Translations under genes and position numbers: made by a program
Source of the DNA: Paraspadella gotoi
Taxonomy: Eukaryota > Animalia > Chaetognatha
Length of the DNA: 64,000 bases
Reading direction: 5' to 3'
Assembly: GCA_051294375.1 (NCBI GenBank)
Contig: CM119264.1
Span: 20,240,248 to 20,304,247, forward strand
Shown here: one piece after another, positions 5,199-48,333 of the stretch
How positions within the stretch are numbered: position 1 is the first letter of the stretch
Layout of the letters: every line of letters starts with the position of its first letter
Notes under the pieces: generated by a model
The model's database searches: none
The model's input: the letters and a program-made list of their open reading frames with translations, nothing else
What the model was told of the DNA's origin: nothing

Positions 5199-5421
5199 TG
5201 CTTATGGTAGACTAAAATCCACCAATCAGCAGCCATTGGGCCGGAGACGTCAATCGCCTCCCAACCAAAGTCCGGGTTTACCCGGGTGGTCGCCTAGCAG
5301 GTAAGAAGGACGCGGCGCTTAACCCGCTCTGTAACATGGTGTTACAGCCTGATCGTAAGCTCAGACTGCTTATATTGAGATGGTTCTGTCACTAACAAAC
5401 AATAAATTACTGCTCTCTTCA
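5199..5421 (+). mobile_element. Solo LTR of the TRIM family
   Basis: Colinear with 30081-30316 (ggtagactaaaatccacc...ctcttca); partial duplicate at ~4750-4808. Confidence 0.8.
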
Positions 5422-7200: not shown

Positions 7201-7205
7201 CTATA

Positions 7206-7730
7206 GGGATAGGGGTAGGGAGGGTGTTGTTGATGACCAAGAGGCCCGCGTTAGGGTTAGGCTTAGGGAAGGTACTGGCGAGGGACATTAGGGATTAGGG
7301 TTGAGGCACGGAGATGTACGGGAGGCCTGGGCCCGGTTTAGGGTTAGGGTTGGGAGAGAGGCCCGTGGGTTATATATCAAAGGCAATTAGGGTTAGGGTT
7401 GAGGTAAGGAGATGTACAGGAGGCCTGGGCCCGGTTTAGGCTTAGGGTTGGGAGAGAGGCCCGTGGGTCATATATCAAAGGCAATTAGGGTTAGGCGGTT
7501 AGGGTTAGGGTTGAGGCATGGAGATGTACGGGAGGCCCAGGCCCGGGTTAGGGTTGAGGCACAGAGTTGAACGGGAGGTTTGGTTTAGGGTTAGGGTTAG
7601 GAGAGGAGCCTGAAGGTGATGTTCATTTCATTATATTCGCTACTTTTATCACTGGCGAGGTCGCCAGTGGGGGGACTGGCGACATCGCCAAAGCCCTGGC
7701 GATATCGCCATGGCGAAGTCGCCAACCAAC
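7206..7730. repeat. TA-flanked insertion with TTAGGG-rich ~74-bp tandem units and a palindromic TGGCGA..TCGCCA array
   Basis: ttagggttagggttg repeats 7250-7600; four tggcgaNNtcgcca palindromes 7652-7724; TA at 7204-7205 and 7731-7732. Confidence 0.7.
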
Positions 7731-15139: not shown

Positions 15140-15262
15140 TTGGTACAAGCAATATAAAATTATCCATTCATTTAATAAATAAGCTTTCTTTCCCCTGACT
15201 TTGGACCGGCTTTAGTAGCTTGTAAAAATAGAAATAGTGAATAGAATTCACTGAAGACTAAC

Positions 15263-15419: not shown

Positions 15420-15522
15420 CTGGAGAGGAAAAATAAATGCATTAATCCCTCATCCTCTATCAAAAATGACCCAAAAAGAGTAAAATTTTATATTGAGACT
15501 GTTTTTCATACAAAGGACAAGG

Positions 15523-15850
15523 TGTGGCGAATCCTAAAATCGCCTCCCGTATAGCTTGGAGAAACTCAGCTCCTCCCATTGGCTTGGACAGCTAAGTACT
15601 CGTTCACCAACCGTGAGTTCCGGGTTCAATCTCCTCACGGTCACCCTGGTTAAAGTTTGATGGTGTCGGCATAAACACGCCAGTGACATGGGGTGGTCAC
15701 TGCAGGTCCATAGCCCTGAGCGCCAGCTGTCGGGAGATGCCTCACACCCCAGGCATCACACTTGTCCCTCCGTTGCCATAAAGGTTTATAAACTTTTACT
15801 CCCCTAGACTACCCGACAAATAATCCTCAGCACCCCATGAACCAACATCC
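15523..15850 (+). mobile_element. LTR-like or SINE-like repeat with tRNA-derived boxes
   Basis: Starts TGTGGCGA..ctaaaaTCGCC hairpin like the TRIM LTR start; tggcttggac and ccgggttcaatc boxes; 3' end undefined. Confidence 0.45.
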
Positions 15851-19447: not shown

Positions 19448-19927
19448 GAGAGTCTTGATTGAAAGCTTGCAGGGACCTGCTATATCATTATCTTGTAAGA
19501 GTGATGGAGGCCTTAAACCACCAAAGCCTGTCCAAAGTCAGGGTCAAGATAGCTTATTTATTAAATGAATGGATAATTTTTATATTGGTTGTACCAATTT
19601 CATAAAATTCAGCTCCTTGTATTTTGATGCTAGTGCGGAGTACAATAAGTATTCCCCGATCTAATACTTAAGGGAGTGGTCTTTTTATACAATTGAAACA
19701 TTCTTTGAAAATATTATACCACTTCATTGATAGGGAAGCAGGTACTCTGGAGTGAATAAATGAGACTGTGAGAGAGTCTTGATTGAAAGCTTACATGGAC
19801 CTGCTATGTCATTATCTTGTAAGAGTGATGGAGGCCTTAAACCACCAAAGCCTGTCCAAAGTCAGGGGCAAGATAGCATATTTATTAAATGAATGGATAA
19901 TTTTTATATTGGTTGTACCAATTTCAT
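19448..19927 (+). mobile_element. Left-truncated copy of the direct-repeat element
   Basis: Partial repeat + core + full repeat ending gtaccaatttcat. Confidence 0.7.
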
Positions 19928-20696: not shown

Positions 20697-20981
20697 TGTC
20701 GTCGGGCATTGCCTAGGTTCACCCCGCTTATAAGCATGACTCTTTCAGTTGTGACCCGGTGGCTCATTGAATAAAGCCATCAGCTCATGACCACTAGGTA
20801 CCGGGTTCAATCCCAACCCGGTACCTCCCCTGCGGGAAGAGTGAGGACGGCCGTAAGCTGCCTTTGGGGCGTGGAAAACCCTCAAGTCTGGTTCCAGGCC
20901 CAGGACCCGTTCCATGTCTGCTAGAGGGGGTTATAGAAGTTATGGATAGTCATCTTCAGCCCCCGTAGCGCCTTATCCACA
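20697..20981 (+). mobile_element. Solo-LTR-like element with internal tRNA-like A/B boxes
   Basis: TGT...ACA termini with TATA on both sides; tggctcattg (A-like) and ggttcaatccc (B-like); related copies at 31591 and ~61732. Confidence 0.7.
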
Positions 20982-23900
20982 TATATGCGTTTCCAAAATG
21001 AGAATGAGATGAAATGAAACGCAATTGACAATGTAGCTCCTGCTTGAAAACGTTTCTCCGGGACTACGCTGCAGCTTGCCGTTTTATGCAAGACGAGCGC
21101 GCCCGTCTCAAAAGATGATCCTCGTTTCCCTCGCACCATCCCGCGTGACGTCGCTCTTTTATTCTAATGAATTCCTTGGACCGACGAGATCATCCTGGGA
21201 GTTTCTTTTCTGAAGTTTTGAGTTTGTTTCTACCTTCGAGTTCGTCGCGCCAATTGAAGACGGATTCCCGGCCGTAGATGCACCAGCTGAAGAAACCCCT
21301 CCAGGACCCGGGGGGGTAGACGGAAGAAGACGTAGAGCCTCAAACAAACTGAAGACTCCGAGACCAATGGCGCCGCAAATATTTATTTTAAATGCTTATT
21401 CTTGAAAGTCACGCGATCTCCGTCCTAATATTTAGTACCTTAATAAAATAACCAAAGCATATAGATATTCAATTTTATTCATACAATACAATAAATGAAA
21501 TACTAACTAATTAATCAAAGAAGCAATATTAGACAAATTAACAAATCCACAAAGAATCCACTAAACGTCCATTAAGAATCCACAAACGTTTATTATTTTA
21601 GAGAAGAGTCCCGTTTCAGAGCAGAATCTGGAATCTGGAATCCGCAAAAGAGAGAAAGAGACGAACGTCGATATCTCCTATATAAAAGAGCATCTGAGTT
21701 GTAGATGGTAGTCCGGACTTCACATTTCCTAATTATGACTTTGTGGAAACGACAACGACGACAGAGACGACACCGACGTCTTTTCGAGAAGTATCGAGGA
21801 AAACAACGACTACAGCTTGAAACTGGGATCGGATCGGATCACTTGCCTGTGGCGAAAACAGTTCCTGTTATTCAACTATGACGAAATTTTCTTTAGCTAA
21901 TGATCGATAATAGGCAACTGAGTTTTTCGGTTTAATCGACGATCACCGAGCCGACAACAAATATTTTCGTTGATGCTAAAATTTTAGAAGAATTTTAGTA
22001 AAATTACCTCATGATCGCCTTGTTTTTCGAAAGTTAAGTTTCGAAGCTGATACACGTACGGACTGTAGTATACCGTGAGGATTTTTTGCGATCGAAAGAA
22101 TGAAAGTAAAAAAAAAGTAAAGTAAAGAAAAAAATATATATCAGCTGCGTCGTCGTCGTCGTCTCTGCAGACGATATACGACACGATGAAGTTAACGTGG
22201 CGAATTTTTATCATATTTCTTAATCTGTGAGCTAAACTTGAAGCTTTACATTAATAATACCACACGCGTTTGGTTCTACCAGACTACCTTTACATTTACT
22301 ATAACCCTCGCTTATCTACAAAAAAGGAAAATTAGTAAAAAATCCATAAGAAACAGACTCGTGGTAGCAAAGATCTCTGACAAAATTTTGTACTTCTTTA
22401 TTTGTCAGCTAAACCATATAGCCAAAAAATATTAAAAATGATTATAATTATATACCAAATGATAGCTGAGAACAAGATCTTACTGTCTGATCTATTATTT
22501 GATAATTTTGAATTAAGACACTACAAGTTTTAGTTCAACCAGTTTGAAAACTAAAATGATACATTTTTTTTCTACTTTTTTAAGATTTGACTTTCTTTTT
22601 TTACTGTATTCCTGATGTATTGCGGCAAAGAATAAGAAAGACATTTTGAGTTAAGTCATGTTATTGTAATCTTATATGTACATTTTGAAACCAATCGGAT
22701 TACAACTTCTGTACCATAAACATTCTTATTTGTTAAAAAAATAGGAAAAAATGATTTTGGAAAAAAAGATTTTGGGCATTAAGAATTTTAGATCTGGAAA
22801 TAGGGTGGGAATTTTGCATTTTTAAAAAAAAAAANNNNNNNNNNNNNNNNNNNNNNNNNNNNNNNNNNNNNNNNNNNNNNNNNNNNNNNNNNNNNNNNNN
22901 NNNNNNNNNNNNNNNNNNNNNNNNNNNNNNNNNNNNNNNNNNNNNNNNNNNNNNNNNNNNNNNNNNNNNNNNNNNNNNNNNNNNNNNNNNNNNNNNNNNN
23001 NNNNNNNNNNNNNNNNNNNNNNNNNNNNNNNNNNNNNNNNNNNNNNNNNNNNNNNNNNNNNNNNNNNNNNNNNNNNNNNNNNNNNNNNNNNNNNNNNNNN
23101 NNNNNNNNNNNNNNNNGGGTCGGCGCAGGGAAAAATGAGTCACGTGACTTCGAAGTACTTGTTTCAAGTTCATGTAGAATAAAATCGTTTGTAATAAGAG
23201 GCCTNNNNNNNNNNNNNNNNNNNNNNNNNNNNNNNNNNNNNNNNNNNNNNNNNNNNNNNNNNNNNNNNNNNNNNNNNNNNNNNNNNNNNNNNNNNNNNNN
23301 NNNNNNNNNNNNNNNNNNNNNNNNNNNNNNNNNNNNNNNNNNNNNNNNNNNNNNNNNNNNNNNNNNNNNNNNNNNNNNNNNNNNNNNNNNNNNNNNNNNN
23401 NNNNNNNNNNNNACTGACATCTAATGGAAGCTACTTAATTTAAAGACAAACAAAAGGCTTTGAAGCAACTTTAAAGCTTTAAATCAAAACTCAGACGCTT
23501 AGATTTCAAGCCTGTCCGATTGGCTAAGTGTTGGGAAGTGATAAGTCCCGACGATTAGGACCGAGTTCGAGCCCGGGCGCTGACAGATTATCTTATTCTT
23601 AAATAATTCTACTCGAAATAGACGCATATCTTTTATTTTAGAGTAGAAATAGGTCAGTTCATTTTTTTTCGGATTTTTTAAAAAAAAATAATATTTTTTG
23701 TTTAATTTTAATGTTTATACTATTATGAATAAAACCAAACTCACATAAAGGTATGAAGATGAAGGAAATGAATTGGAGTAAGGAGTAAGGAGCTAGGAGA
23801 AAAGGTAAGTAAAGAATGAGAGATTAAAGAAAAAAAAAGAAATAGAATGAAAGAGAGAAAGATAGAAAAATAAAGAGGGATAGAGAGTGAGAGAGAGAAA

Positions 23901-28717: not shown

Positions 28718-29253
28718 TGAATATTATACCACTTCATTGATAGGGAAGCCAGGTACTCTGGAAGTGAATAAACGAGACTGTGAGAGAGTCTTGATTGAAA
28801 GCTTGCAGGGACCTGCTGTCATAGTAAGAGTGATGGAGGCCTTAAACACCAAAGCCTGTCCAAAGTCAGGGGCAAGATAGCTTATTTATTAAATGAATGG
28901 ATAATTTTTATATTGGTTGTACCAATTTCATAAAATTCAGCTCCTTGTATTTTGATGCTAGTGCGGAGTACAATAAGTATTCCCCGATCTAATACTTAAG
29001 GGAGTGGTCTTTTCATACAATTGAAACATTCTTTGAATATTATACCACTTCATTGATAGGGAAGCCAGGTACTCTGGAGTGAATAAACGAGACTGTGAGA
29101 GAGTCTTGATTGAAAGCTTGCAGGGACCTGCTATGTCATTATCTTGTAAGAGTGATGGAGGCCTTAAACCACCAAAGCCTGTCCAAAGTCAGGGGCAAGA
29201 TAGCTTATTTATTAAATGAATGGATAATTTTTATATTGGTTGTACCAATTTCA
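28718..29253 (+). mobile_element. Unclassified element: two ~215-220 bp TG...CA direct repeats around a ~103-bp core
   Basis: Repeats 28718-28930 and 29034-29253; related pieces at 19448-19927, 48090-48250, 38949-39008, 36097-36130 and 15139-15220 (reverse). Confidence 0.7.
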
Positions 29254-29263
29254 TATTGTAACA

Positions 29264-30080: not shown

Positions 30081-30651
30081 TTTATGGTGGACTAAAATCC
30101 ACCAACCGTTCATCAGCGGCCATTGGTGTCGGAGGCAAGTCATTCGCCTCCCAACCTAAAGGTCCGGGGTTCTAGCCCAGTGGTCGCCTAGCAGTTAAGA
30201 GGAACGGGGCGCTTAACCCGCCTGTAACACGGTGTTACGGCCTGATCCGAAGCTCAGGGACTGCTTATATTGAACAGTTCTGTCATTAACACATAACAAT
30301 AATTACTGTCTCTTCATTGGTGAGCCCGACATCCGAACACAGCAACAAGACTTTCAGGCGACATGCCTCAACCTGGCGATGCACTTTCCACCCGCAACAC
30401 ATCAGGCGACATGCCTCAACTTGGTGACAAACTTTCCACCAACAACAACAATTCACTGAAGAGTCCTAACAGACTTCTTCCTACGGGAGAGGGGGATGTT
30501 TGGTGGACTAAAATCCACCAACCGTTCATCAGCGGCCATTGGTGCCGGAGCCAACCCAAAGGTCCGGGGATCTAGCCCGCCTGTAACACGGTGTTACGGC
30601 CTGATCCGAAGCTCAGGGACTGCTTAAGTGCTTATATTGAACGGTTCTGTC
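30081..30651 (+). mobile_element. TRIM (miniature non-autonomous LTR element) with tRNA-like cassette in LTR, copy 1
   Basis: 236-bp 5' LTR ending TCTTCA (30316); PBS ttggtgagcccgac; 180-bp internal part with a ~42-bp tandem duplication; PPT gggagaggggga; 3' LTR from TGT at 30497 (internally deleted and truncated). Confidence 0.88.
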
Positions 30652-30671
30652 AGCGGCTGTCCAGCTTTCTT

Positions 30672-30705
<34 letters not shown>

Positions 30706-30937
30706 ACTCTGTACGATCTCTTGCGGGACCGTTTTTTGAAAAAAAATGATTATTTTTTTCCTTTTAAAAACTTTTATTATCGCCATTTATTCCGCGCTTT
30801 TTTCTCAATGCAAAATCCCAAATTTACATCCGAGATTTTCGTGGATTTTTTCTCTTTAATTCTCTCTCTCTTTCTCTCTCTCTTTCACTCATACACGCAT
30901 TTGTTTGTTTTTATTTATGATGAATGATTCCTTGCGT

Positions 30938-31201
30938 CAATGAATGACTATCATCGCATCAATGAATGACTATCATCGTATCAATGAATGATTATCATCA
31001 CATCAATGGATGAATATCATCGCATCAATCATTTGGTTATTATCACATCAATCATTTGGTTATCATCACATCGATCATTTGGTTATCATCGCATCAATTA
31101 TTGGTTATCATCGCATCAATATTTGGTTATCATCGCATCAAATATTTGGTTATCATCGCATCAACCCTTTGGTTATCATCGCATCAATATTTGGTTATCA
31201 T
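30938..31201 (+). repeat. ~21-22 bp minisatellite (ATCATCGCATCAATATTTGGTT) within a dispersed repeat
   Basis: About a dozen tandem units; related arrays at 9437-9650 (+) and 24465-24650 (-). Confidence 0.85.
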
Positions 31202-31280
31202 TGAAGGTAGGCTCGATCCTATTCTTTTAAGATTTTTTCTTTTCTTTTCTTTTCCCTTCTTTCTTTCTTTCTTTCTTTCT

Positions 31281-31356
31281 TTCATTCGTTCATTCATTCA
31301 TTCATTCATTCATTCATTCATTCATTCATTCATTCATTCATTCATTCATTCATTCA
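31281..31356 (+). repeat. (TTCA)n microsatellite
   Basis: Near-perfect tetranucleotide run. Confidence 0.95.
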
Positions 31357-31590
31357 TTTTTTATTTCTTTTTCATCATATTCATCCACTATCATCGTCGT
31401 CCTCTTCTTGATCCCAAAAGCTGAATTATGGTTCATAAACGTCAATTTTTGTGTCGCTGAGGCGAGAAGTGAATTCGCGGTAACAAGGTATTCTGGTTAT
31501 GAGATGCCATTTAAAACCATTTATGTGAGACCAAAGCTATGAAACGAGAGAGAGAGAGAGAGAGAGAGATAAAAAAAATTTAGACATATA

Positions 31591-31854
31591 TGTAGTCGGG
31601 CATTGCCTAGGTTCACCCCGCCTAGAATCATGACACTTTCAGTTGTGGCCCGGTGGCTCATGACCACTAGGTACCGGGTTCAATCCCAACCCGGTACCTT
31701 TCTGCAGGAAGCGTGAGGACGGCCGTAAGCCGCCTTGGGGGCATGGCAAACCCTCAAGCCTGGTTCAAAGCCCAGGGACCCGTTCCATGGCTGCTAGAGG
31801 GGGTTATAGAAGTTACGGACAGTCATCTTCAGTCCACGTAGCGCCTTATCCACA
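31591..31854 (+). mobile_element. Second copy of the tRNA-box solo-LTR-like element
   Basis: TGT...ACA, TATA flanks; 21-nt deletion between gctcat microhomologies relative to the 20697 copy. Confidence 0.7.
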
Positions 31855-34492
31855 TATATCCGTTTTCTAATACATAAAGCAAAATTGTACATACATACAT
31901 AAGCATTCAGGCCAAGAAAATAAATAATAGAAACTAAATAAATACTTGATTTTCAAGTAATTCCTAATGGCATGCGATGCAGCAATGATTCATCAAGACT
32001 AGAATACATGATGACAATTTTAAACCCGCCGCTAAAAAAAGCTGCTATTTTTAAATTCATATATAATTTGTAATATTAAATACTAATTTATAAGTAAAAA
32101 CCAAAACTATTTATTATGATAGCAGGAAAATAGATTTGAAAATCGTCCTTTTTTTTTTTCTCTCTTACTTTCAGTAAACTTTTCTAAGAAATGTTTAATA
32201 AAATAGTATACTATCTAGAAAAAAGTATAAAACATAAATTATTAGATATTATTAGAATTATTAGATAAATAAAACATTTTTAAAAAAGAAAGCAATATAT
32301 ATTTGTTTAAATAATATAGATTAAATACTAAATCCTTCATAAAATATAAAAATAGAAAATAGTGAAACAAGTAATTTGCAAATTTTCATAATTCATTTAT
32401 TCAATAAAAAGTATACAATACATGGGTAAAACATTTTTAATATTTAGTATGCCCTTCCTTTGCATTGACTACTGCCTGCATTTATCTGGGCATGCTCTCA
32501 TACAGCAAATTGAGGTATGACAGTAAAATATTTTTCCACATCTTTAACGCAATTCTATTCAGCCCCGATGTTGTTGTTGCGCATCTTTCCCTCTTTTCTG
32601 AGTGCTATAATAGTACTTTTTTGAACCAAAAAGAGGTGCAAGGCTTTTAGCATTACAAAATTTAAAAAAAAATAACTCTAACTAAATACCAAAAATTGTG
32701 GAAAACTAAATATGATTTTTTGCGACATTTTTCATTTGAAGTAACAATATTTTTTTGCCTCTAACTTCTAAACGATTTGACCTATAAAAAAAGGAAGGAA
32801 GCTACTGAAAGGAAATTCAATGTAAATTTAGAAACATTCTGATTTTTTTTAAATAAAACAAGTTTTGGAGTAGATATCCTATTATTATTATTGTCTGAAA
32901 ACCCTTGCAAATATTAAGAGAATGAAATTTTCACCATGTAGAATTGCAGATTGATGTTGATGTTGGTCTCTTTCCCTATTTTTTGCAATATATTCTCCGA
33001 ACACTTCTCTCAATGTTAAAAATCCTCTTCTTTGAGCGTTTTTAAAAGGTAGCTGATAGAGAGAGAGTGTGTGTGTCTGTTCATACTAATTCTTGTTCGT
33101 TGGCAGTAAGCCATGATTTTTTTAAAAAGAGAGGAGAAATAAAAAGATACAAAGAGACGGCGAGAGTTAGTGAGGCGCTGCCTTGTCCCAGACAAACAAT
33201 TTCCTTGACGTTGGCAAAACGACAAGTTGTTTTGTTGATCGTTTAACTTTTCAGGTATCCATTAATCAGGCATCACCATCAGCTTCATAAATTTTCCGCT
33301 TTGTCTCATGAGTTAGTTTGGTGACTGAAAGGGTTTTGGAGCGAGGATAGCAGTGGATGGAGGACTGGAGTAGGGAAATGACTTTGTTTTGATATTGGAT
33401 TATGAAAATTCGTTCTCTACGTTATTGTTTCCTTTTTGGTGCTGCAACAGTATGTGTATTATAACCTAAAACGAGCACTGTTTCAAATGTTTTTTTAAAT
33501 CTCACTGCTTTATTTGAAAAGTTTTAACACGGCGAGTTGCCAACGGATTGCTAAAAGATTTTCGTTCGCGGTCGGAAGCTTAGGACTTTACGCCCACATT
33601 AATCGAATGGCCGCTTATGGGAATTCCTCGTATTTATCGGTCGAGAACAACTGTTTTAGCGTCGCTGACGTGAAAAGAAACGAGAATGACGATGACGACG
33701 ACGACGACTTCGAGCACAACGACGAGCATATTCACAAATATGGGATGGTCTGGTGTTCGAGGCAGGGTCCTATTAAAATTTTTGGGAAATGTATGAAAAT
33801 TTGCAAATTACTTGTTTCACTATTTTCTATTTTTATATTTTATGAAGGATTTACTATTTAATCTATATTCTTTAAATATATATGTATTTCTTTCTTAAAA
33901 ATATTTTACTTATCATTATATCTAATAATTCATTTTGGGAAGGGGAAGTCAGTGTTGTCTTCTGGAAATAGAGGGAGCATCTCTACAACACAAGGTTAGA
34001 TTACTATATATCTATATTATTATTATTATTATCTATATATCTATATTATTTTGATATGCGATGCAAGCTAAAACATTTACCTAAAATAAGATAACGGTAA
34101 GTTAAATATTTTTCTAATTGAAAATTTGGGAATATGTTAGGGAGCCTCCCACTTTCTAAAATCGTGAAATCGACCACGAATTATCGACGACGACGATGAC
34201 AACAATGAAAACAACCATGACGACGAAGGCCAAAATGTATTTCGACCTGATCGAGCTTGGAACTTAAAACTAAGAATAGAAGCCGCTTGATCAAGCCGCG
34301 AGAGGACTTGACATGCATTTTGACATGGGCGCGTATACGTTGAAAGACTATAAATAGAGAAAGGGAAAGATATCTAAAATTTCTAAATCTAAAGATTAAA
34401 AGAGAGAATTAAAAATAGAGGGCCATTTTTTTATAAAACAAAAAAAAAGGAAAATAAATTTCAGGGGTTAAGTAAATCACTAAATTTACAAT

Positions 34493-35140
34493 TGAAGAGA
34501 CAATAATTATTGTTATGTGTTAGTAACAGAACCGTTCAATATAAGCAGTCCGTGAGCTTCTGATCAGGCTGTAACACCGTGTGACGGGCGGGTTAAGCGC
34601 CCCGTCCCTCTTAACTGCTAGGCGACCACTGGGCTAGAATCCCGGACCTTTGGGTTGAGAGGCGAATGACTTGCCTCCGGCACCAATGGCCGCTGATGAA
34701 CAGTTGGTGGATTTTAGTCCACCATACATCCCTCCCTCCAGTAGAGAGAAGTCTGTTGTGTCTCTTCAGTGAATTGTTGTTGTTGGTGGAAAGTTCATCA
34801 CCAAGTTGAGGCATGTCGCCTGATGTGTTGTTGGCAGAAAGTGCATCGCCAGGTTGAGGCATGTCGCCTGAAAGTGTTGTTGATGCTGTTGTGTTTGGAG
34901 GTTGGGCTCACCAATGAAGAGACAGTAATTATTGTTATGTGTTAGTGACAGAACCATTTAATATAAGCAGTCCCTGAGCTTTAGATCACCGTGTTACAGG
35001 CGGGTTAAGCGCCCCATTCCTCTTAACTGCTAGGCGACCACCGGGCAAGAACCCAGGATCTTTGGGTTGGGAGGCGAATGACTTGCCTCCTGCACCAATG
35101 GCCGGTGATGAACGGTTGGTGGATTTTAGTTCACCATACA
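34493..35140 (-). mobile_element. TRIM with tRNA-like cassette in LTR, copy 2 (both LTRs)
   Basis: LTRs 34915-35140 and 34493-34728 (TGTATGG...TCTTCA); PBS ttggtgagccc; PPT ggagggaggga; no clean 4-5 bp TSD seen. Confidence 0.9.
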
Positions 35141-38100
35141 ATGAATGGAATGAAAGTATGTGTTCAGGAAATGTCCTCGCAAAAAGTTTTAATTTATTTA
35201 TCCAAATTTGGATAACGACAAAGGAAAAAGTGACTTTCCGCAAGTGATGAGTGAAAGAGGGAAAATCCACGCAGTAAACGCTTTTGTCACCCCACGCGAC
35301 TAAAAAGTCGGATGACGAACCGAGAATTGAGATGCGAAGAAAATATATGATCCGATAAAACTAATTTGTTGCTGCTTATTTCATCTTTGATCTCTGATAT
35401 TTCCTCAATATCTTTTTATTTACGATCTCGTTTACTTAAAGGTAATTCCGTTAACGATACGACATCCGGTAAACGAAATCCATTATCGCACACATCTTGC
35501 ACCTACAGTTTTAAAAATAAAACTCAAGTATTATGTTTTGATAAGTTTTATTAAGTTCCATTATGTATTAAGTTACTCTTATTGTTACATATTTATATAG
35601 TATACATAATTGCTTTTTTCTTATATCTGCTCGTTAAACTGCAATCTTTTGAGGGACATACATACTAAGAGATGGGTTTGTTGTTAACAAAAGACAGTTT
35701 AGAAGATAACTAATGAGCTTTTTCCGCGCGACTCCATAACCCTGAAGAATAGAGAAAGTCTTTACCGCGAGGAATTGAAAGTGCTTCGTCTCAAAGGATC
35801 AATTTATTCTAATCTCACCTGGATTGGGTTTTTTTTTCGAACTAATAATATTTAAATGTCAAAACTACATGTTTTCCTCTATTAAAATGCTTATGTTTTT
35901 AATTTATACTGATGCCAAACTGATGTCTCCCGTGCAACAAATGCTCTTTTTTCAGCTCGAAGTCTCGGTGGAGCTGATCCCTCCCATGCCGAGACTCCAG
36001 GGATTTGATCTTTTAGAAACTGGAAAAGATTAATTTTCTAGAGTTAAACTAGAAAAAATTAGAATGTACAACAACAATAATATTCTCTTTTAAATATGGA
36101 TAATTTTTATATTGGTTGTACCAATTTCATGTAATATTTTCTTTAGTCATTTCATTTCATTTCTCGAAATTCTTGGAAATGAAATGATTTTAAAAACGGT
36201 TCTTGGTTTTTTATGCTGAAGAAGAAGTTTAACATTTTAAAACACATACTGTATGTACGTAGTTTAATAAAAAAATATTTCTCGTCGTGCAACGATTTTT
36301 CTAAATTTTCTTGAAAGGCAAAAACCCCAATCCCATTGTAAAATTCCCCGCGTACACTTCCAGGTTCCCAACGCTGCCTCGTTTTAGTCTTTCACATTTT
36401 TTTATGCCCCTCACGCGTTCATTTCTCGTCATGACTTCTCGCCATCTTTTTGTTGTCGCTCGAAAAACTGAAAAAAAAAAATAGAAACTCGACAAGCAAT
36501 AATCATTTCACAAGAAAAAAGAACATCGGACTGAAAACAACTAATATTTTTCTAAGCTTATCCTCCCGAAAAAAAATTAAGGCAATAACGGCTCAACGTG
36601 ACGGGGGACAACAACGACGACTGCTGTGGAGAAGTTGTTTGCTGATTGCTCGAACGAGAATGAGATGACATCAAGTACCTAATATTGATTTTTCTCTTTT
36701 TAATTATGACTTTTTTTTCCTAGAAAAGAACGTTTGATATTGCGTCACAGTTCTTAATCGCCCTAAACGTGAAGAAAATAAAAAGTAATAAGAAAACGGG
36801 GACGATGAGACAGAAAAAGCGATCAATAATGTTTGCACGAAAAAAAGATCGAGAGAATAATGAAGAAAACGTAGTGGAAAGAAAACAGCGAGGAGCAAGA
36901 GAGGGTGGAAAGGATAGGAATTGGCAAGAGTATTTAAAAAACAAGAACGTTAAAGAAAGTGCGAACGAACGAACAAACGTTTAAAAGAAGGCAGGAACGA
37001 AGGAACAAGCAAAATGTTATTAGTGACACCGTAACAGTTCAGTTTAAGCCTTTGAATTCGATTTACATGAAATGACGCAGCCACTGCTATGGACTAATAT
37101 TTTGTTAAAATTGTTGTCAATAGAACGATAAGAGAACGATATGGCACAAATAATTGGGTCAAACGGGTGTTCTATAACGGGGAGTGAATCAAAATTTAGA
37201 ATATTATTTACCATCAGATTTTATAGGCAAAAATTATTAATTATCTTTTTATAATACACTAAAATAATAACTGATGTTTTCTGTTTTTTATATAGGTTTT
37301 ATTTTTCTCATGCTCTTACAATATGCTGCGCTACTAAAAATAATGCAACATTGGTAGAATTTGCTCTGCGCCGGTTTAGTGCTTAAAACCACTACTAAAT
37401 ATGTTAATGTTCCCTATCAGTATGTTATATTATTAAGAAGGTTATTAAGAATAAGACTAAGTCGGGAAATCGTGCGCTCAAGCCCGAGTCGATTAGAGCC
37501 ATTTATAAGGATGCTGCAGGTAGGAATTGTAGCATACTCAAAACAAACAATATGTACGCTAGTAGCTCATTTCTATGGTAAAAGGAAAATTCGAAGGAGA
37601 GCAAATAAAGAACTCCATTTAGAAATATTTATTAGGACATATTATCTTTACTATCCTATGGCCATTTAACTGTCGCAGTTTAACAAGACCTATTTTAACC
37701 TTAACTAATAAAAGTAAATAGCTTAATGCAATCTCCTGCATCATCAGATGAAAGAAAAATACTTCCTTAGATTTTTGCTACTGATAATTTTGTAGGTGTT
37801 AAAAGCTTATTTAATAGGCTATATTTTCTGTTAATTTCAACCAATTTTATTTATTTTTGTTTAACAAATTATGATAAAGACTGAAACTGCAACTTTTTGA
37901 CTTTAAAATTAATTCATAGGCAAACTATAAATGATTTAAGCAAATAAATTTACACAGGGGTAAAGAAGATAAGGAAGAACGGATTTTCAAAGTAAAAAAT
38001 ATTTCTCAACTTTTCTTGGCATTCAAATCATAGGTCGTAAGTAAAAATGGACAAAAATGGACATAATTTTTTTTCCTAAAAGTTGCCAAAATGGTACTCT

Positions 38101-39255
38101 TTTTATCATTAGAAACGGGTGGAGATGTTTCTAACCAATCCTTCGTTTGGCCCAATTTGTGTTGTGGCACAAAGTTAATCAACATTGTAAGTAACAACTG
38201 AACAATAGTGGAAAGAGTCGTTTTTTGCCTAAATGCAACGTTTGTATGCGGAACCACTCTTGGGGTTATTATGCATGGCTGTAACAAAGGGCATTGTTGT
38301 ATACAGCTGAAAAAATAAAGATTTCAGCTGCAGCAACATTTTAATTTTTGACTGAATGATTTTCGGGTCTGATAATATCCACATCTAATTCCCCTAAACT
38401 GCGAAGAGGGGCGTTTTTAAGAGTGAGACCTATATGACTTTCAACCAATATATCAATGACAATGACTGATGGTATCTTGTTCATAATTAACTTTTAGAAT
38501 TTTCGTATGTAACTTTCCACTACGCTTACTGTACATGTATTTATATATCTCTTTAGTCCTTACAAAAACCGAAAAAAAAGAATGAACGCCATTCGAGCGT
38601 TTACTGTTTTTCTCTTAATTTGTATTCAAACGGAAAATGATTTTCAACAGGCAAACAGCGTTTCTCTTCTAACAAGACGAAAATTTGCATGAATAAAATC
38701 TGAAATTCACTTTTTAAAAAAAAATTTTTCTCAAAAAAATCTCTTTGCGTGGGTACAAAGAAAGTTAGGAAATTCTTGGATGATTCCAAAAAAAGCGTGG
38801 TATCTTAAAATCCATCAGCACGTAAAGTTATGCCTGGGGTTCGAGCCCAGTGCCCGCCTTACAGTAGAGGCCCAGAAATATATATAGCGATTATACAATG
38901 CGGTTTAAATATTGAGACCAAAGAAAACCGAAAAAAGCTGTAATTAACTCAGGGGCAAGATAGCTTATTTATTAAATGAATGGGCAATTTTTATATTGGT
39001 TGTACCGATTTTTTTTTTTTTTTGGATATTATGTTTAAGCTCTATAAATTTCGCTACATAACTATTATTAAAAAAACTTGAGATTTTACTGAAAATAGCT
39101 TAAAATCAGCTTGATGGCGGCCAATGGGCGCCGACCATACAGCTACTATATACAACGCACAGCCATAAACCACTCACGGTAATGATTCTCTGAAGCATTG
39201 GTCGAGAACGTGACCGTCGTTAACAAATTGCTTGTTGACAGCGGAGAAATTGCAT

Positions 39256-41986: not shown

Positions 41987-44900
41987 TGTAGATTCGAACC
42001 CGGGATGAATCAGCCACGTTCGGTGATCAGCCATGTCGCCAACCTTGCAGTTAGAAATATTATTCTCACAGATATTATTTAAAGTTACACATAATATTTA
42101 TTTTACCTTTTGTTTAACAAGACAAAGAATCAAATCAATTACAAATAATCAGCTGATTTTGTTTGTTTCCATCTTGTATCCATTCAATTGGAAATCAATT
42201 TTACAAAGCAAATGAAAATATAACAACTTCCTTAAAACTAATAGTGTTATTAATTTATCTGATTATTCTTTGTTCTATTGTCTTTTCGTAATAATGTATA
42301 ATTAATATTAATTTATTCGACTTGCTTTGTTTTGCTATATAGATACTTTCAATTTGTTGTCGGCAAAAGCATGGAATTCTATCATGCTTTGATTATTTTA
42401 TTAAGGTTCCTTTTATAATATAACCAAACAAGTGGTTAGCATTAACTTTAATCCTCGAAAGTTAAGAAACTTTTATCAGCGCTAACGACGCAACTTAAAC
42501 TTCCGGTGCCATCCACATTGGTGAACTCGCGACGAATCCTTTCCACCTTCAACCGGCCCAACATCAAAGCAATATGGATGAGCGATCCCAGAGACTCGCC
42601 AAACCGCCCGCCTACGCACAACAAACGACTCTCAACGTCCGGCACAATTTCTACCCAGGCCGCGCATCCCGGGAGACGTCCTCCCACATGGCTGGTCGAC
42701 GCGACTGACGCGCTGCCTTGCGATTTTCCGCCAACGTCACCGACATCGAAACCTCGCCTCACGCGCCAACGGCGAAATGGGACCGCCCCCGCTCTGACGA
42801 CACAGAGGCGCTGCGCTCAGCCCTTGAGCGGCGCTGAAAGCCCTCGAGAAGAGAAGGAAACCGGAATTGCGTCCTTTGAACCCCAGAAATATGACATTTG
42901 GATTCGCAGGGTCGAGGCGGATTTGTCCGCGCCAGCATCAGGAAAGAAGGCGAGAAGTTTGGCAGCATCTTCGAGTCCAAAAATAAGCGTAAGACGGCAC
43001 CCGCGCGTCAAAGCGTTTCTCTACGGCGACCCATCGGAACCAAATGGAACGGAGTTGTCGCTACTCCGTAAAGAGTACGGCATGACGCGCCGCGACGAAA
43101 GCGGCGCTCCTCCCACAGCGGTTTTTGGCCGCGACGGGGTCTACGCCGTCCCAAACTAGCGCACTGGAGGAAAAAGTTAAGCCGTCACCACTTGACCGAA
43201 TCCCAGAAGGAAACGGTAGTCAGGGGTCTACCCCTCGAGTGAGGCGTGCCCTTGAAGGACAAAGTCGATGACTGGACGGCGTCGCAAACCTCGCCGACGC
43301 CGCTTGCAAATTCTTCGAGACTCGAAAGGGCGCCCGAACTCTCGGCAGTACCGGCTTCGACGAATCAACTCCACTACCATCGCAATCGTGGCGAAGACTC
43401 AAGAGTGAATGGCCGATAACGCAACGGCGGCGTCAACGCAAAATTCCAAGTCAATCGCCTGACCAAATCGCCCGCAGCAGTCTTACTGGCGCCCCCAGCA
43501 CAATCCAGCGGCTCTCAAACACATGCCCGCCCGCCAAATGCACGCCTTAACCAGATATGCCGCTGGCACTTAAAGTTGGAGACGCTGCTTACCGCTCGAA
43601 CGCGTGCGCCCGTAAAAGCGAACGCCGTGACAGGAAGGAGCCGCAGTCGGGGAAATGGCGCTTGCGGGCCAGCGGAAGGTGACACGCTGTGCCCCGCGCC
43701 AAAGATGATTCACCCGACAACTTTCTGCTTCATGTGAAGGACGCCAAGGTCGACGGCCGCCCATTGGCTCGTCGACGCGGCGCCCTCATCTCCCTTGTCC
43801 GCCCACCTGGCGCAGAAACAGCAGGACCGGTTTGGAACCCAGCTCCAACAGCCAACGGCAGCCCCATCAATTCCTATGGTGTTGGGTACATCGCGTATTG
43901 TCCTCCAGCTCAAGAGTTTCCCTTTTGACGTCATCGCGGCCGAGTGACGCAGAATATATTGGGCGCCAATTTCTTAGCTGAATCTACCTAGCCCCAATCA
44001 CCGTGAAGGCACCCTGAATGATTTTACGTGACTCTCGACAATTGCATGCCGAATTTTCGGAGGCCATTCCTCCATCTCGCGTAAACTTTAATTCGATCAC
44101 GGAAAGATAATAATAATTCAATCAGCTCCTCGACCGTAACCCCGACATTATCAACTACCGACTTTTTGAACATCAAATGGGCGCCAAAACACGGGGTAAA
44201 GCATCACATCCCAACGCTTTGGAACCATGCAAGCAAGAGCCCGGCGCCTTCCCCCGAAAGCTCGCCGTTCGCCAAGGCAGAGCTGGAGAAGCTCGTGTCT
44301 GGGCATCGCAAACGAGCCAAGAGCTCATGGGTCCTTCGCCACTTCCTGTGCTCACCCAAAGCCGACGGAAGGATGGCGGCTGCTGCGGAGATTTCCGCGC
44401 GACTAATTCGAAAACAAAGTGTACGATTCAATATTATTCCTTCCCGTCAAACTCCTTAGTCCGACTTCAATGCGGAATCGCAAGGGAAGAAAATCTCTCA
44501 AAAATAGATTACTCAAGCTACCACAAATCGCCGGTAGCAGACGAAAGACAGTTGCCATAGACGGCGGTCATCACCCCCTTCGGTCTCTTCGTCTTCCTCA
44601 GACGCCTTCGGCCTCAAAAACGCTGGGCAGGACTTCCAGCGTATGATGGATGAAATACTCGGCCGATTCTCACCACGTAATGTTTACTAGACGACATCCT
44701 CGTCGCCAGCAATGACGAGGAGGAGCATCTGAAGGACCTCAAGTCGGTTTTCCGACTCCCTCGCCGCACGGGTTGTAGTTAACCGGAAAAAGTGCATTTT
44801 GGGCGAACAGTCCTTAGAGTTCCTCGGTTACTGGTGGATTGCGACGGGTCAGCCTCTCCCACACAAAGTCATAGCAATTCGCGCCATCTCACCCGTCTCA

Positions 44901-47073
44901 TCTTATCTCTGTAAGGAGCTGCAGAGGTTCTCGGTATGGTGAACTAAATCCGGCGCTTTATTCAAAGCGCTCACCATGCCTGCGGCCGCTCTAAACGACA
45001 TACTCGCTGGAAAACCGAGAGCAATTCTCAATCACTGGTCGGAGAAATGCTCGTGCGTCCGTTCATGCCGTCAAAGACGCATTAGCCAATGTGCACTACT
45101 CTTGCCGCCATCCGCAGACGCCACGCGCACTGGCGCCTTCACGCACCGATGCCTCCGACAATTGTTGTAGGTGCCGTGCTCGAGCAGAGGAACGCCACAA
45201 AGGATGGGTAACTCTCTAGTTCATTTTTTCTCTGCGAAACTCGACGAGCGCAAAGCCGATGGAACATTCGACAGAGAACTTTTATGGAGCCTCAGAGCGT
45301 GCCGAACACTTCCGCCACTGGCGGAGGGGAGATCTTTCACCTATACAGAACAGATGCAACCAGTCCTAATCATGCCCTGCATAAGAATCCGAGCCACAGA
45401 CTACGCGTCACAATTTTCAACTGTCTGTGATATCGGGATCACGAGCGACAATCAGCATGTACGCGGCAAGGCCAACGTAAGTAACGCCGATGCCCTGTCG
45501 AGGGCCCAACCCGCCGCCAAATCGCCGCAGTCCGACGTCCAGTGCCCCGCGGAAAAGACCAAGACCTCTACAGTAACCCGTCACGCATAGGGGCAAGAAG
45601 GCGTCGATTTGGACGGAAATGGCGCGCCACCAAACCTCGAACGCGACTTTCAGCGGTTTCTCCCAAGACGCCAGAAAACAGGGACTCCAGTTTCCGAAAA
45701 GTCAAAGTCGGCAAACCAGGAACTGTTCCGTCGAGCATCTCGAACGGACCCGCGAGACCATTCGTGCCCAAGAGTCCTGGCGTAGGAAAATCTTTGAATT
45801 GCATCCAACAGCCTCGGCGCCACCCGGCGTCGCCAAGAACCCGCGAGACCCATCGCCTCAAATTCGTCTGGCCATCCCTGAAGGGCCGATGCGAACCCGC
45901 TGGGACAAGGAAATGTGTCCTTGTCCAACAGAAAAGGTCCACCCTCACGTGGACCACCAAACATTGGGAATTCGAAGTTCCCAGCAAGGGCGTTTCCACC
46001 ACATCAACGATGGACATACCATTATGCCAGCATCAAATGGCTTCAAAAACTTGCCTTACAATCGTAGATCGATTCTCGAGATGGCCTGCAGCCATCCCAT
46101 GACAGATATGGTCGTCCACATCTGTAGGTCGACGCCCTCCACCCACGGCTGGATCGCCAACCTTTGGCATTCCCATCAAACATCACCACTGACCGCGGTG
46201 CCCCTCCATCGTCGCCAGTGCCGACGCCAGACACAGCCGGAAGCGATTCAGCGTGAGCCACGCCCACCAGTGGAAACGTGTGTTGCGTCCAAGACGATCG
46301 AACTTTTCTTACAAAATAAACTCTTCAACCGACCTGATTACAAACGCCCGTCCTATGCCATTTATCGAGTTGTAACTGTAATCTAATTTGATTACCTTTT
46401 TTAAAACTGTCCGCTATTACTTACCTAGAGTAGATTTAAATTAGTCACATCTCTTGCGTTCGAATCAATAATTCGTACTCTTTGAGCCAATTGCGTTTCC
46501 GTAAACTGTAGAGTTTCCGTCTGGGGGGGATGTAGATTCGAAACCGGATGGAATCAGCCACGTTCGTGACTCAAGCCAATGTCGCCACCTTTGGCAGTTA
46601 GAAAGTATATCTCACAACAGATATTATTTAAAGTTACACAAGTATTTAATATTTATTTTACTTTTGTTTTACCAAGACAAAAGATCAATCCAATTTACAA
46701 TAATGCAGCTGATTTGTTTTGTTGTCATCTTGTATTCCAATTCACTTGGATCATTTATACAAAGCCAATGAAATTACAACTTCCCTTAAAACTAATAAGT
46801 GTTATAATTTTACTGATTATTCTTTGTTATTGTCTTTCTTTCTATTATGTATAATTAATCAATTAATTATTCATTGCTTGTTTTGCTATATAGATATTTC
46901 AATTGTTGTCGGGCAAAAGCAATGGAATATCTATATGCTTTGATTATTTATTAAGGTTTCCTTTTTATTAATATAACCAACACAAGTTGGTTAGCATTAA
47001 TTTTATCTCGAAGTTAAAGAAACTATTCTATCAGCGCTAACGACGGCCCAAACTTACTTCCGTGCCATCCACA
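41987..47073 (+). mobile_element. Ty3/Gypsy LTR retrotransposon with both LTRs, antisense in SLC6 intron 9
   Basis: LTRs 41987-42517 and 46531-47073 (TGTAG...CCACA); TTAT TSD on both sides; PBS-like tggtgaactcgcgacg at 42519; PPT ggggggga before the 3' LTR; PR-RT-RH-IN order. Confidence 0.96.
42860..46200 (+). pseudogene. Frameshift-riddled gag-pol of the Gypsy element
   Basis: Protease VD(T)GA-like ~43771; RT TAVITPFGLF ~44561, FGLKNAGQDFQRMMD ~44606, Y(L)DDILVAS ~44685; RNase H TDAS ~45143 and GKANV.ADALSR ~45465; integrase LTIVDRFSRWP ~46055 and ITTDRG ~46182; boundaries approximate. Confidence 0.9.
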
Positions 47074-47536
47074 TTATATAAAAAAAATGAATCAAGAGTT
47101 CCGTATGTGATAAAGGAAAATGTATTGTTATTATAAGAAAAAATATGAAATCGATTTTCCACTAAAAGATCGAGTGAAATAGTCACGAAATACAAAGAAC
47201 GCCAACAACAAACGCAAGAAAACAATTCTCTCTCTTGATTAAATTTGGAAAGAGGCAGCACGACCGTTTAAGCGAGACTCGTCACGCCCCGTCGTCCTCC
47301 GACTCGGCTTTTCACAATGTTCAACAGCGAATTTTGAATATCAGTCTTTTTTCATCCGAAAATTTTGAATCCCCGAGAACGCGTTGTTCTCTTAATACTG
47401 AATGATATTGATCTCTTCCGCGTCCCATTGGCCCTCTGCCCACACGGCACCACCAGCCAAGAAAGGAAATATTAATGCGCAGGTTAAAGCCTGCTTCTTC
47501 CTTTGTCCGCCTATCTCACGCAGCCCCACCACTCAC

Positions 47537-48055: not shown

Positions 48056-48333
48056 CTGAATGAATGAATAAACCAGTGAATGAATAAACCAGGTACTCTG
48101 GGAGTGAATAAACGAGACTTTGAGAGAGTCTTGATTGAAAGCTTGCAGGGACCTGCTATGTCATTATCTTGTAAGAGTGATGGAGGCCTTAAACCACCAA
48201 AGCCAGTCCAAAGTCAGGGGCAAGATAGCTTATTTATTAAATGAATGGATAAAAAAAAGAAGAAGAATTGAAACTAAAAAAAAATAGAAAAGAGTAAAAA
48301 ATTATCGAAAGGATGTAAATAAGTTAAACGTAC

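Follow-up and report, generated by a model that had tools for sequence, protein, structure and literature searches.

A predicted twister ribozyme beside a tRNA-derived cassette in the LTRs of a Paraspadella gotoi mini-retrotransposon

How does a short element with a tRNA-sized block in its LTRs move through an animal genome? The question arose in a 64-kb window of Paraspadella gotoi DNA (the whole 64,000-nucleotide stretch that was analyzed), where an earlier note had described two elements with the order LTR-PBS-core-PPT-LTR and a solo LTR. These copies of family F1 were borne out as elements E1 and E2 and a solo LTR at 5203-5421, giving five LTR copies (Table 1). F1 is a very high-copy family and is a non-autonomous, non-coding LTR mini-retrotransposon (TRIM); the tRNA-derived LTR block that the note had attributed to it is supported. 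No open reading frame of at least 100 aa overlapping the E1 core was found. The full length of E2 is 646 bp (34493-35138). The span proposed for the find, 30081..35140, does hold both elements, but E1 and E2 are inverted and about 3.8 kb of unrelated DNA lies between them. The 3' end of the E1 3' LTR was replaced by another repeat, and the 41-nt deletion in that LTR takes out the 5' half of the twister domain described below. No TSD was found around the solo LTR at 5203..5421. For pieces of a decayed 5-kb LTR element in the window, neither Pfam nor PDB gave a match. An SLC6 exon matched two unnamed proteins; the clusters of proteins similar to these are eukaryotic, most of them from Nematoda, Arthropoda and Chordata, which points to an animal host.

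The LTR had been taken to begin at 30081. In sequencing run X1, 126 loose ends lay before 30083, 94 before 30082, 32 before 30081 and 172 behind 30316; these counts place the LTR start at 30083 (TA...CA). The loose-end consensus of the same run suggests an ATAT-like target.

Table 1. Coordinates of the elements, their parts and the twister-like domains in the window
Feature	Position	Strand	Remarks
E1 5' LTR	30083..30316	+	234 nt, TA...CA; bounded by clustered loose ends (before 30081-30083; behind 30316)
5'-terminal 7-bp hairpin of E1 LTR	30085..30104	+	pair probabilities 0.7-1.0
Degenerate tRNA-derived cassette, E1 5' LTR	30116..30188	+	Gly-CCC-like pseudogene call, ARAGORN score 90.7
Predicted type-P5 twister ribozyme, E1 5' LTR	30190..30265	+	76 nt, adjoins cassette
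P5 of E1 twister domain	30190-96/30259-65	+	
P2 of E1 twister domain	30201-02/30217-18	+	
G-A positions of E1 twister domain	30203-04	+	
T1 of E1 twister domain	30205-07/30247-49	+	
Self-complementary P1 segment of E1 twister domain	30208-13	+	
UAA of E1 twister domain	30214-16	+	predicted cut between 30214 and 30215
T2 of E1 twister domain	30220-21/30252-53	+	
P3 and P4 of E1 twister domain	P3 30222-40; P4 30241-58	+	P4 closes 8-nt loop
E1 non-coding core	30317..30498	+	two ~40-nt tandem hairpin repeats
E1 PBS	30318..30330	+	12/13 nt complementary to tRNA-Trp 3' end (Kojima Fig. S2; by eye)
E1 polypurine tract (PPT)	30485..30496	+	
E1 3' LTR	30499..30652	+	decayed, truncated; 16-nt and 41-nt deletions, 8-nt duplication
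E2 5' LTR	34915..35138	-	10-nt deletion in P3/P4
E2 5' LTR tRNA-like cassette	35105-35033	-	
E2 5' LTR predicted cut	between 35007 and 35006	-	
E2 core	34727..34914	-	PBS 34913-34901; PPT ~34740-34729
E2 3' LTR	34493..34726	-	
E2 3' LTR twister-like domain	~34619-34544	-	predicted cut between 34595 and 34594
E2 TSD ATTG	35139..35142, partner 34489-34492	-	4 bp, both sides
Solo LTR, F1	5203..5421	+	older copy, 82% identity
F2 solo LTR	31586..31847	+	TG...CA, TATA TSD; between E1 and E2; twister-like domain 31708-31778
F2 second copy, twister-like domain	20836..20906	+	T1 UCC/GGA
F3 twister-like domain	19496..19545	+	T1 CCA/UGG, T2 AC/GU; Rfam Twister-P5 25.8 bits
F4 twister-like domain	15652..15721	+	T1 CCA/UGG, P4 CAGG/CCUG; behind tRNA-like B box

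The 72-nt block was present with every part that had been described, namely the 7-bp acceptor-like stem, the CU-CCC-AA loop, AGGUC and the GGTTC box. ARAGORN at default settings called no genes in the whole window, and Rfam scans of the window, E1 and LTR pieces gave no tRNA match. At the 90% threshold, ARAGORN called a tRNA-Gly(CCC) pseudogene at exactly the 30116-30188 position in two of the five LTR copies and in 1 of 500 dinucleotide shuffles, so the tRNA likeness of the cassette is above chance; at 80%, three of the five copies were called, one of them as Glu. The cassette contains a B-box-like GGTTC and a weak A-box-like TGGTG..CGG, which fits the YGG part but not the TRGCY part of the Helenus Box A motif; the Box A region of families F2 and F4 reads TGGCT. 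No match to 5S rRNA, from which the LTR promoter boxes of Cassandra and Ajax derive, was obtained in Rfam scans at E up to 10. Depth in run X1, which is not a copy number, was 2.9-4.4 million over the block and about 2.9-4.3 million over the rest of the LTR; the two ranges match, so the block is no latecomer confined to a minority of copies, a possibility that the note had considered.

A tRNA mimic had also been proposed; a folded one, recruiting tRNA-handling enzymes or acting as a primer, would be in keeping with the tRNA size of the block, the acceptor-like stem (pair probability about 0.93) and the Gly-CCC call. However, the cloverleaf does not fold: at -2.7 kcal/mol it falls about 29 kcal/mol short of the best structure (-31.7), anticodon-stem and T-stem pair probabilities in the E1 cassette are 0.0, and an inner 6-bp hairpin (probability 0.88-1.0) takes up the D/anticodon region. 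Most contigs of the sequencing runs have an even weaker anticodon-like stem (position 30157), and Kojima saw no priming role for Helenus cassettes (PMC10886601). We regard such a mimic as very improbable. The cassette is likely a relic of a Pol III promoter.

A tRNA block in a TRIM LTR is not new but already published as Helenus/TRIMp3, TRIMs whose LTRs hold tRNA-derived blocks, whose PBSs are of Gypsy type and whose TSDs in animals are 4 bp long (Kojima 2024, PMC10886601). Among the known systems closest to F1 are these elements, above all Helenus-2_SyJa and Helenus-2_SyUm, which are primed by tRNA-Trp and come from Synergus wasps (PMC10886601). Like them, F1 is under 1 kb, has a PBS, a PPT and many solo LTRs, and combines a tRNA-derived LTR block with a GGTTC Box B (seen in the E1 5' cassette), a 4-bp TSD (ATTG/ATTG in E2) and a tRNA-Trp PBS as in Gypsy elements. 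Unlike them, F1 has a twister-like domain after the cassette, no T-run and a more decayed Box A. Inspection by eye shows a type III hammerhead at the equivalent place in two of the published wasp Helenus LTRs with tRNA-Trp priming. The main text of the Helenus paper (PMC10886601) makes no mention of twister or self-cleavage, ribozymes appearing only in one reference title, and short-motif searches of the Helenus sequence file, in which line breaks can hide matches, found no relatives of F1. Pol III transcription of Helenus is itself unvalidated (PMC10886601). The plant TRIM Cassandra resembles F1 in having a small-RNA-derived Pol III cassette (a likely one in F1) in its LTR, but that cassette is derived from 5S and not from a tRNA, and the ends of Cassandra RNA are set by promoter and terminator, not by a ribozyme (PMC10886601).

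The type-P5 twister-like domain lies right after the cassette (30190-30265) and was missed in the earlier note; its presence changes the likely mechanism. We interpret the predicted fold as a type-P5 twister ribozyme. The segments match the published twister table one by one (PMC8501958 Table 1) in the P5 order of the Rfam model line, P2'-GA-T1'-P1-UAA-P2-GC-P3-P4-L4, open at P5. The twister descriptor, which tolerated a 3-nt P2 by a setting chosen after P2 had been seen in F1, scored 30 of 32, a value reached by none of 187,116 LTR shuffles, and its six best matches in the window all fell within repeat families F1, F2 and F4. P2 has 2 bp and a C-A opposition, vs. 4 bp in the published table (PMC8501958 Table 1), and P1 is loopless and unable to fold into a hairpin in cis; twister reportedly tolerates defects in P1 and P2 (PMC11662667). 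In each of the five window LTRs, at least one core element is not intact. In the E2 3' LTR, G-A is intact with one mismatch in T1 and one in P4, and T1 is broken in register in the solo LTR. The general-base position is G in 98.5% of depth in run X1 (similar in three other runs) and in the E2 3' LTR, the solo LTR, F2, F3 and F4; this G is missing in both 5' LTRs of the window, the E1 5' copy departing there from the family majority. The nested twister fold was predicted at -19.2 kcal/mol, pseudoknots not counted, less stable than a blocked hairpin at -27.8. Rfam gave no twister match on F1 at E up to 10, no match at the gathering threshold in the whole window, and chance matches only in E-value scans of E1 and the E2 3' LTR. 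Like Rfam Twister-P5 (RF02684) and the S. mansoni T-variants at Perere-3 (PMC8501958), the domain has UAA, GA, L4, T1/T2 and P3/P4 and is tied to retroelements. Unlike Twister-P5, it combines the P5 permutation with a long P3, which the Rfam model disallows, a 2-bp P2 and a loopless palindromic P1; unlike the T-variants, it lies in an LTR and not 5' of a non-LTR element.

The same fold was found in at least three further families within this one window (F2, F3 and F4). No significant BLASTN similarity exists between the four families (best cross-family E 0.03). The F2 solo LTR has a tRNA-like cassette with a GGTTCAATCC box, followed by the twister-like domain. Across the families, T1, T2, P2 and P4 are kept in 43 of 44 pairs, a count that omits F2 copy 61725 (P4/L4 deleted) and that 72 of 331,776 partner reassignments reach. 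In a MAFFT alignment of six copies, for which the three F1 LTRs with the heaviest decay and three of the five F3 copies were set aside, 91.1% of cells were paired vs. 71.3 +/- 2.8 when shuffled, and 14 of 23 pairs changed on both sides, including two of three T1 and one of two T2 pairs. The pseudoknot variants are CCG/CGG, UCC/GGA and CCA/UGG for T1 and GC/GC and AC/GU for T2. The families are possibly of common ancestry, so this covariation does not amount to four independent events. Rfam Twister-P5 matched all five F3 copies at 20.6-27.5 bits, below its gathering score of 37.6, and a model built without F4 recovered F4 (16.6 bits, E 0.0024).

The second domain might instead belong to a plain Helenus-type TRIM, as a decayed, Tyr-like tRNA or as a structured, non-catalytic packaging or dimerization signal whose palindrome is a dimer-initiation site. 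ARAGORN calls a tRNA-Tyr(GTA) at 30190-30266 (score 82.1; 92.3 and 85.2 for the equivalent F2 domains), the L4 loop looks like a T-loop/B box, and F1 lacks an Rfam twister match. Yet 45 of 500 shuffles are called at the 80% threshold, the F3 and F4 domains receive no tRNA call, and the tRNA reading of F1 is not homologous to that of F2, because its "anticodon" comes to lie in P3 in the former and in P1/UAA in the latter. In nine of nine copies the stem is closed better over 8 nt than over the 7 nt of a T-loop, and both pseudoknots covary. Weighing these points, we find a plain TRIM improbable.

The P1 segment is self-complementary in all four families; of the hexamers and octamers in these elements, 52 of 971 and 22 of 969, respectively, have this property. 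Because it is self-complementary and without a usable loop in each family, it suggests that two LTR ribozymes pair with each other through P1.

On balance, F1 is probably an animal LTR retrozyme that uses a twister. In the cycle that we infer, transcription would start at the likely Pol III cassette of the 5' LTR. The ribozyme lies downstream of that start, and the transcript would therefore include the whole of both LTR ribozymes, no T4 run interrupting the element. Pairing of P1 between the two LTR copies would favor cutting while the precursor still has two ribozymes, rather than in a product left with one, and cutting at both LTRs would free a monomer RNA of about 412-416 nt. A host RtcB-type ligase could then close the monomer into a circle; in animal retrozymes the hammerheads are dimeric, their loop is palindromic and circularization is by RtcB (PMC7229834), and twister with RtcB produces circles in cells (PMC13622603). 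At the PBS, tRNA-Trp would prime a reverse transcriptase of Gypsy origin, which would continue beyond one full round and so restore both LTRs with no need for an R-repeat jump; insertion of the copy by Gypsy integrase would leave a 4-bp TSD.

Such a cycle has precedents. Like plant LTR retrozymes (Cervera et al., 2016, PMC4918200), F1 is non-coding, with a ribozyme (here predicted) in each LTR, a PBS, a PPT, a 4-bp TSD, a presumed Gypsy partner and a monomer running from ribozyme to ribozyme. Unlike them, it has an animal host, a predicted twister in place of a type III hammerhead, a PBS of tRNA-Trp and not tRNA-Met type and a built-in tRNA-derived cassette; its monomer, predicted as are its circles, is shorter than their 600-1000 nt. 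With animal non-LTR retrozymes (PMC7229834; bioRxiv 10.64898/2026.07.22.740005) it would share small ribozyme-bounded units and a weak helix capped by a palindrome, working in dimers. Those elements, in contrast, lack an LTR, PBS and PPT, are Penelope-derived and have dimeric type I hammerheads. Schistosoma repeats also contain a tRNA sequence.

The twister could also be real but form the end of a linear RNA, taking the place of the T-run of other Helenus LTRs. If transcripts were cut in the 3' LTR alone, a terminal repeat of about 99 nt, from cassette start to cut site, would remain, and ordinary LTR strand transfer would follow, without a circle. All evidence for the twister fold fits this reading as well. 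By eye, a T-run ends the cassette in most of the Helenus LTRs inspected in the supplement; no T4 run occurs anywhere in E1 or E2, which is weak evidence, 288 of 2000 shuffles likewise having none. The predicted E2 circle (-116.7 kcal/mol, z -3.2, 0/60 shuffles) is only moderately paired, at 51% vs. the more than 70% described for retrozymes. However, a ribozyme in the 5' LTR would cut as well and remove the repeat, P1 pairing between two copies predicts paired cutting, and plants and animals circularize ribozyme-flanked monomers. We judge a linear end-former unlikely.

The LTR retrozymes described so far are from plants and have hammerheads, and those described from animals are non-LTR elements, likewise with hammerheads; our literature search found no published report of twister-bearing LTR elements. 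Few roles are known for eukaryotic twisters. If the retrozyme reading is true, twister gains a concrete job inside the LTRs of an animal element amplified on a massive scale, circular-RNA retrotransposition extends to animal Gypsy parasites, Helenus is linked to retrozymes, and the engineered Tornado system has an equivalent in nature. A P1 that is palindromic and loopless leads one to expect a dimeric twister and, if this is true, would account for profile searches missing such ribozymes. More tentatively, a clade of animal TRIMs may be self-contained generators of circular RNA, in which a tRNA-derived Pol III promoter drives a dimeric twister with P1 formed only between LTR copies, RtcB closes the monomer and Gypsy enzymes copy it. 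The ribozyme class could be interchangeable in the LTR slot (twister here, type III hammerhead in wasp Helenus), and for this reason animal LTR retrozymes might be widespread and overlooked.

Other candidates were considered and dropped. A minus-strand CUGAUGA in the LTR lacks GAAA by eye, and hammerhead gave no match in Rfam scans of the window, E1 and LTR pieces; an HDV-like reading of the LTR was likewise abandoned after inspection by eye. Pattern scans of viral contigs for relatives gave no match in one scan and two loci without a P4 stem, as by chance, in another, and a scan of metagenome contigs gave nine loci, with neither BLAST similarity to the element nor an Rfam match. Hairpins were seen by eye in F2 and F4 at an LTR place similar to that of the 5'-terminal hairpin of the E1 LTR.

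Two short LTR elements of one family (F1), E1 and E2, lie in inverted orientation in the 64-kb window together with one solo LTR. An earlier note had described two LTR elements plus a solo LTR, and this is borne out by the window coordinates, the PBS, the PPT and the ATTG TSD of E2. The borders of the E1 5' LTR (30083-30316) were set by the loose ends of contigs from sequencing run X1, where the flank consensus was ATAT-like with low agreement (about 0.4). The E1 PBS matched the 3' end of tRNA-Trp in Kojima Fig. S2 (PMC10886601) at 12 of 13 nt. The integrated LTR starts with TA, not TG (30083-30087; 35138-35134), its tail is rich in A and T, and a TG sits between the PPT and the 3' LTR. A partial copy of the start of the solo LTR and its flank at 4701-4808 (94% identity to 5149-5248), beside an N gap, is probably an assembly duplication.

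Repeat elements of the window with their coordinates (window-based)
Feature	Position	Strand	Remarks
E1 5' LTR	30083-30316	+	
E1 PBS	30318-30330	+	
E1 PPT	30485-30496	+	core between PBS and PPT
E1 3' LTR, damaged	30499-30652	+	
E2 whole element, 646 bp	35138-34493	-	ATTG flanks both ends
Solo F1 LTR	5203-5421		82% identity; no TSD seen
F2 solo-LTR-like unit	31586-31847	+	TG...CA, TATA TSD
F2 solo-LTR-like unit	20698-20982	+	TG...CA, TATA/TATG TSD
F2 solo-LTR-like unit	~61725-61950	+	
F3, 324-bp partial-tandem repeat	19448-19927, 28720-29254, 48087-48252		
F3 fragments	15137-15216, 36062-36127, 38946-39011		
F4 single LTR-like unit	~15522-15790	+	
Decayed ~5-kb LTR retrotransposon	41987-47075	+	LTRs 82% alike; TTAT TSD

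Contigs from four of nine public sequencing runs of one organism were compared with the element, and in X1 a 461-base stretch of it was matched by 15,986 contigs. Summed depth, which is not a copy number, was 3-4 million across the LTR and 0.1-1.2 million across the core, with single contigs at about 200, and indicates that the F1 family is very large and that solo LTRs are numerous in it.

Each intact LTR was earlier proposed to hold a tRNA-sized, cloverleaf-like cassette. Neither ARAGORN at default settings nor Rfam matched the block, and ARAGORN at a 90% threshold called 30116-30188 as a pseudogene of Gly(CCC) type in two of five LTRs compared with 1 of 500 shuffles. The likeness to tRNA thus stands, and the tRNA fold does not: the cloverleaf reaches -2.7 kcal/mol compared with -31.7 kcal/mol for the best fold, in which an inner hairpin occupies the D/anticodon region. 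Depth over the cassette equals that over the rest of the LTR (run X1), so the cassette is integral to the LTR and not a late insertion. Helenus elements (PMC10886601) are TRIMs that combine LTR blocks derived from tRNAs with conserved boxes, Gypsy-type PBSs and, in animals, 4-bp TSDs. The F1 cassette has the same pattern, with box B present and box A decayed, and is therefore of a kind already known. The observation in the earlier note is confirmed, and its interpretation as a Pol III promoter or tRNA mimic is partly supported.

Adjoining the cassette on its 3' side is a 76-nt segment (30190-30265) that the earlier note had passed over and that folds as a multi-stem junction. Its parts follow the order P2', G-A, T1', P1, UAA, P2, GC, P3, P4, an 8-nt loop (UCCGAAGC) and P5, and pair probabilities for P3, P4 and P5 in the LTR context were mostly about 0.9. 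Twister ribozyme segments for comparison were taken from Table 1 of PMC8501958 and the order of the P5 type (the permutation open at P5) from the Rfam model line. With a descriptor based on that table, the E1 5' LTR scored 30 of 32, and among 187,116 shuffles none reached 30, 3 reached 29 and 60 reached 28; a 3-nt P2 was permitted after F1 had been seen, for controls alike. The T1 pseudoknot is CCG/CGG in F1 and CCC/GGG in that table (PMC8501958). P2 is short in F1, and imperfect P1 and P2 are reported to be tolerated in twisters (excerpts of PMC11662667). F1 itself gave no Rfam twister match, plausibly because a long P3, judging from the model line, does not fit the Rfam model. None of the F1 LTRs in the window is fully intact, and the predicted general-base position is A in E1 and G in 98.5% of contig depth (run X1). 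Of the contig variants listed, the frequent ones affect the P3 loop, the ends of stems or CpG sites. The segment could instead be a second, Tyr-like tRNA, for which ARAGORN gave Tyr calls scoring 82-92, but the stem closes 8 nt and not 7 in all nine copies, and the would-be anticodon falls in one segment in F1 and in another in F2. We regard 30190-30265 as very probably a twister-derived fold.

The same fold was found in three other repeat families of the window (F2, F3 and F4), which share no significant BLASTN similarity with F1 or with each other. F2 (20892, 31764) and F4 (15707) were among the best-ranked window matches of the descriptor scan, and Rfam Twister-P5 matched all five F3 copies with 20.6-27.5 bits, short of the threshold of 37.6. 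The F3 domain at 19488-19552 retains all core nucleotides. Across families T1 pairs are CCG/CGG, UCC/GGA and CCA/UGG, and those of T2, the other pseudoknot, are GC/GC and AC/GU. With one chosen copy per family, 43 of 44 pairs of T1, T2, P2 and P4 are kept (72 of 331,776 reassignments do as well). When six copies belonging to three families are aligned with MAFFT, 91.1% of cells pair compared with 71.3% when shuffled (0/500), both sides changing in 14 of 23 pairs; these covariation figures are not a probability, since the structure was taken from F1 and the families may share ancestry. A model built without F4 recovered F4 at E 0.0024, above every match outside the training families, the next being the F1 reverse strand at 16.2 bits.

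In F2 a tRNA-like cassette (TGGCT, GGTTCAATCC) is joined by a twister-like domain whose P1, CGGCCG, lacks a loop, and the F2 ends (TGTAG...ATCCACA) match the ends of the 5-kb LTR element (41987-47075). F4 combines a 5' hairpin like that of F1 with a tRNA-like B box, and its P5 twister is close to the textbook form. F3 has a fixed 3' end, 5'-truncated fragments and no evident PBS, PPT or tRNA cassette, and resembles a retrozyme (a non-coding retroelement with self-cleaving ribozymes) of the non-LTR or Penelope type, with a twister replacing the hammerhead.

Between T1' and UAA, P1 is GGCGCU, CGGCCG, AGGCCU or, in F4, the 8-nt UGUCGGCA. All four segments are self-complementary over their full length (duplex -8.3 to -10.7 kcal/mol), against only 52 of the 971 hexamers and 22 of the 969 octamers in the elements. 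None of the hexamers can close a hairpin, so P1 would be formed between two copies. Amphibian retrozymes have dimeric hammerheads with a palindromic loop (PMC7229834, in part); in F1-F4 the palindrome is P1 and the dimer is predicted. P1 is described as dispensable in some twisters (sections of PMC11662667 and PMC8501958); alternatively, the palindrome may serve as a genome-dimer signal. Dimer-dependent cutting, within the full circle-based picture, is a tentative proposal that we hold to be rather doubtful.

A promoter-like cassette 5' of the ribozyme would give a transcript carrying both twisters. Neither E1 nor E2 contains a T4 run, which is weak evidence, as the same is true of 288 of 2000 shuffles. 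Cuts at both U^AA sites would release 412 nt from E2 and, going by unit length, 416 nt from E1. Folded as a circle, the E2 monomer is more stable than all 60 shuffles (z -3.2), but only 51% of it is paired. In single-copy folding the ribozyme is caught in a blocked hairpin, as described likewise for plant retrozyme RNAs (PMC4918200, in part). The monomer would be closed by RtcB, which ligates ends of this kind both in animal retrozymes and in the Tornado system (passages in PMC7229834 and PMC13622603). The PBS, PPT and TSD would then imply priming by tRNA-Trp followed by integration by a Gypsy partner. The main rival is a twister whose sole role is 3'-end formation on a linear RNA; on balance we lean towards the circle-based cycle. 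The F1 element, which shares the tested Helenus features apart from the decayed box A and departs from the definition of plant LTR retrozymes in ribozyme class and primer, likely works like an LTR retrozyme.

The decayed 5-kb element resembles F1 in PBS start (TGGTGA), a G-rich PPT, here followed by TG, and a 4-bp TSD. It contains what we take to be Gypsy-like pol motifs in broken frames; the pieces searched gave no Pfam or PDB match. It represents a candidate class of autonomous partner.

Helenus-2_SyJa-LTR and Helenus-2_SyUm-LTR in the supplement of PMC10886601, both tRNA-Trp-primed and from wasps, contain, by eye, downstream of the tRNA cassette a type III hammerhead made up of a GUC triplet, a helix I of 7 bp, CUGAUGA, helix II, GAAA, a helix III of 6 bp and a loop-loop complement of 12 nt; the main text of that paper is silent on it. 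This hammerhead occupies the equivalent slot, which supports a need for self-cleavage downstream of the cassette, and suggests that animal LTR retrozymes are more widespread. In the consulted portions of the literature, LTR retrozymes are plant elements with hammerheads and animal retrozymes are non-LTR elements with hammerheads (PMC7761336; PMC6765202; PMC10085705; PMC5680766; PMC11722881), a split also found in bioRxiv 2022.07.19.500677 and bioRxiv 2026.07.22.740005. PMC7761336 mentions type III hammerheads in insect elements that are unpublished and, at RTE elements, twisters in truncated form. The searched literature, with few subscription papers, contained no twisters in LTR elements and no dimeric natural twisters. 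The F1 family may have been annotated earlier, the Helenus sequence file having been compared mostly by motif. The Ajax-1_NGe and Ajax-1_LiLo LTRs (supplement of PMC10886601) share an 11-nt string with F1 at the predicted cut site (30212-30222), possibly by chance, and show no twister loop by eye.

Other families contribute several more repeat pairs, dispersed or inverted, at 32248-32390/33792-33929, 26115-26603/28202-28706 and 29375-30076/41096-41764. Host exons on the minus strand, which point to an animal, encode parts of a gamma-glutamyltranspeptidase (6980-7294; Pfam PF01019) and an SLC6 transporter (63456-63803; PF00209 relatives).
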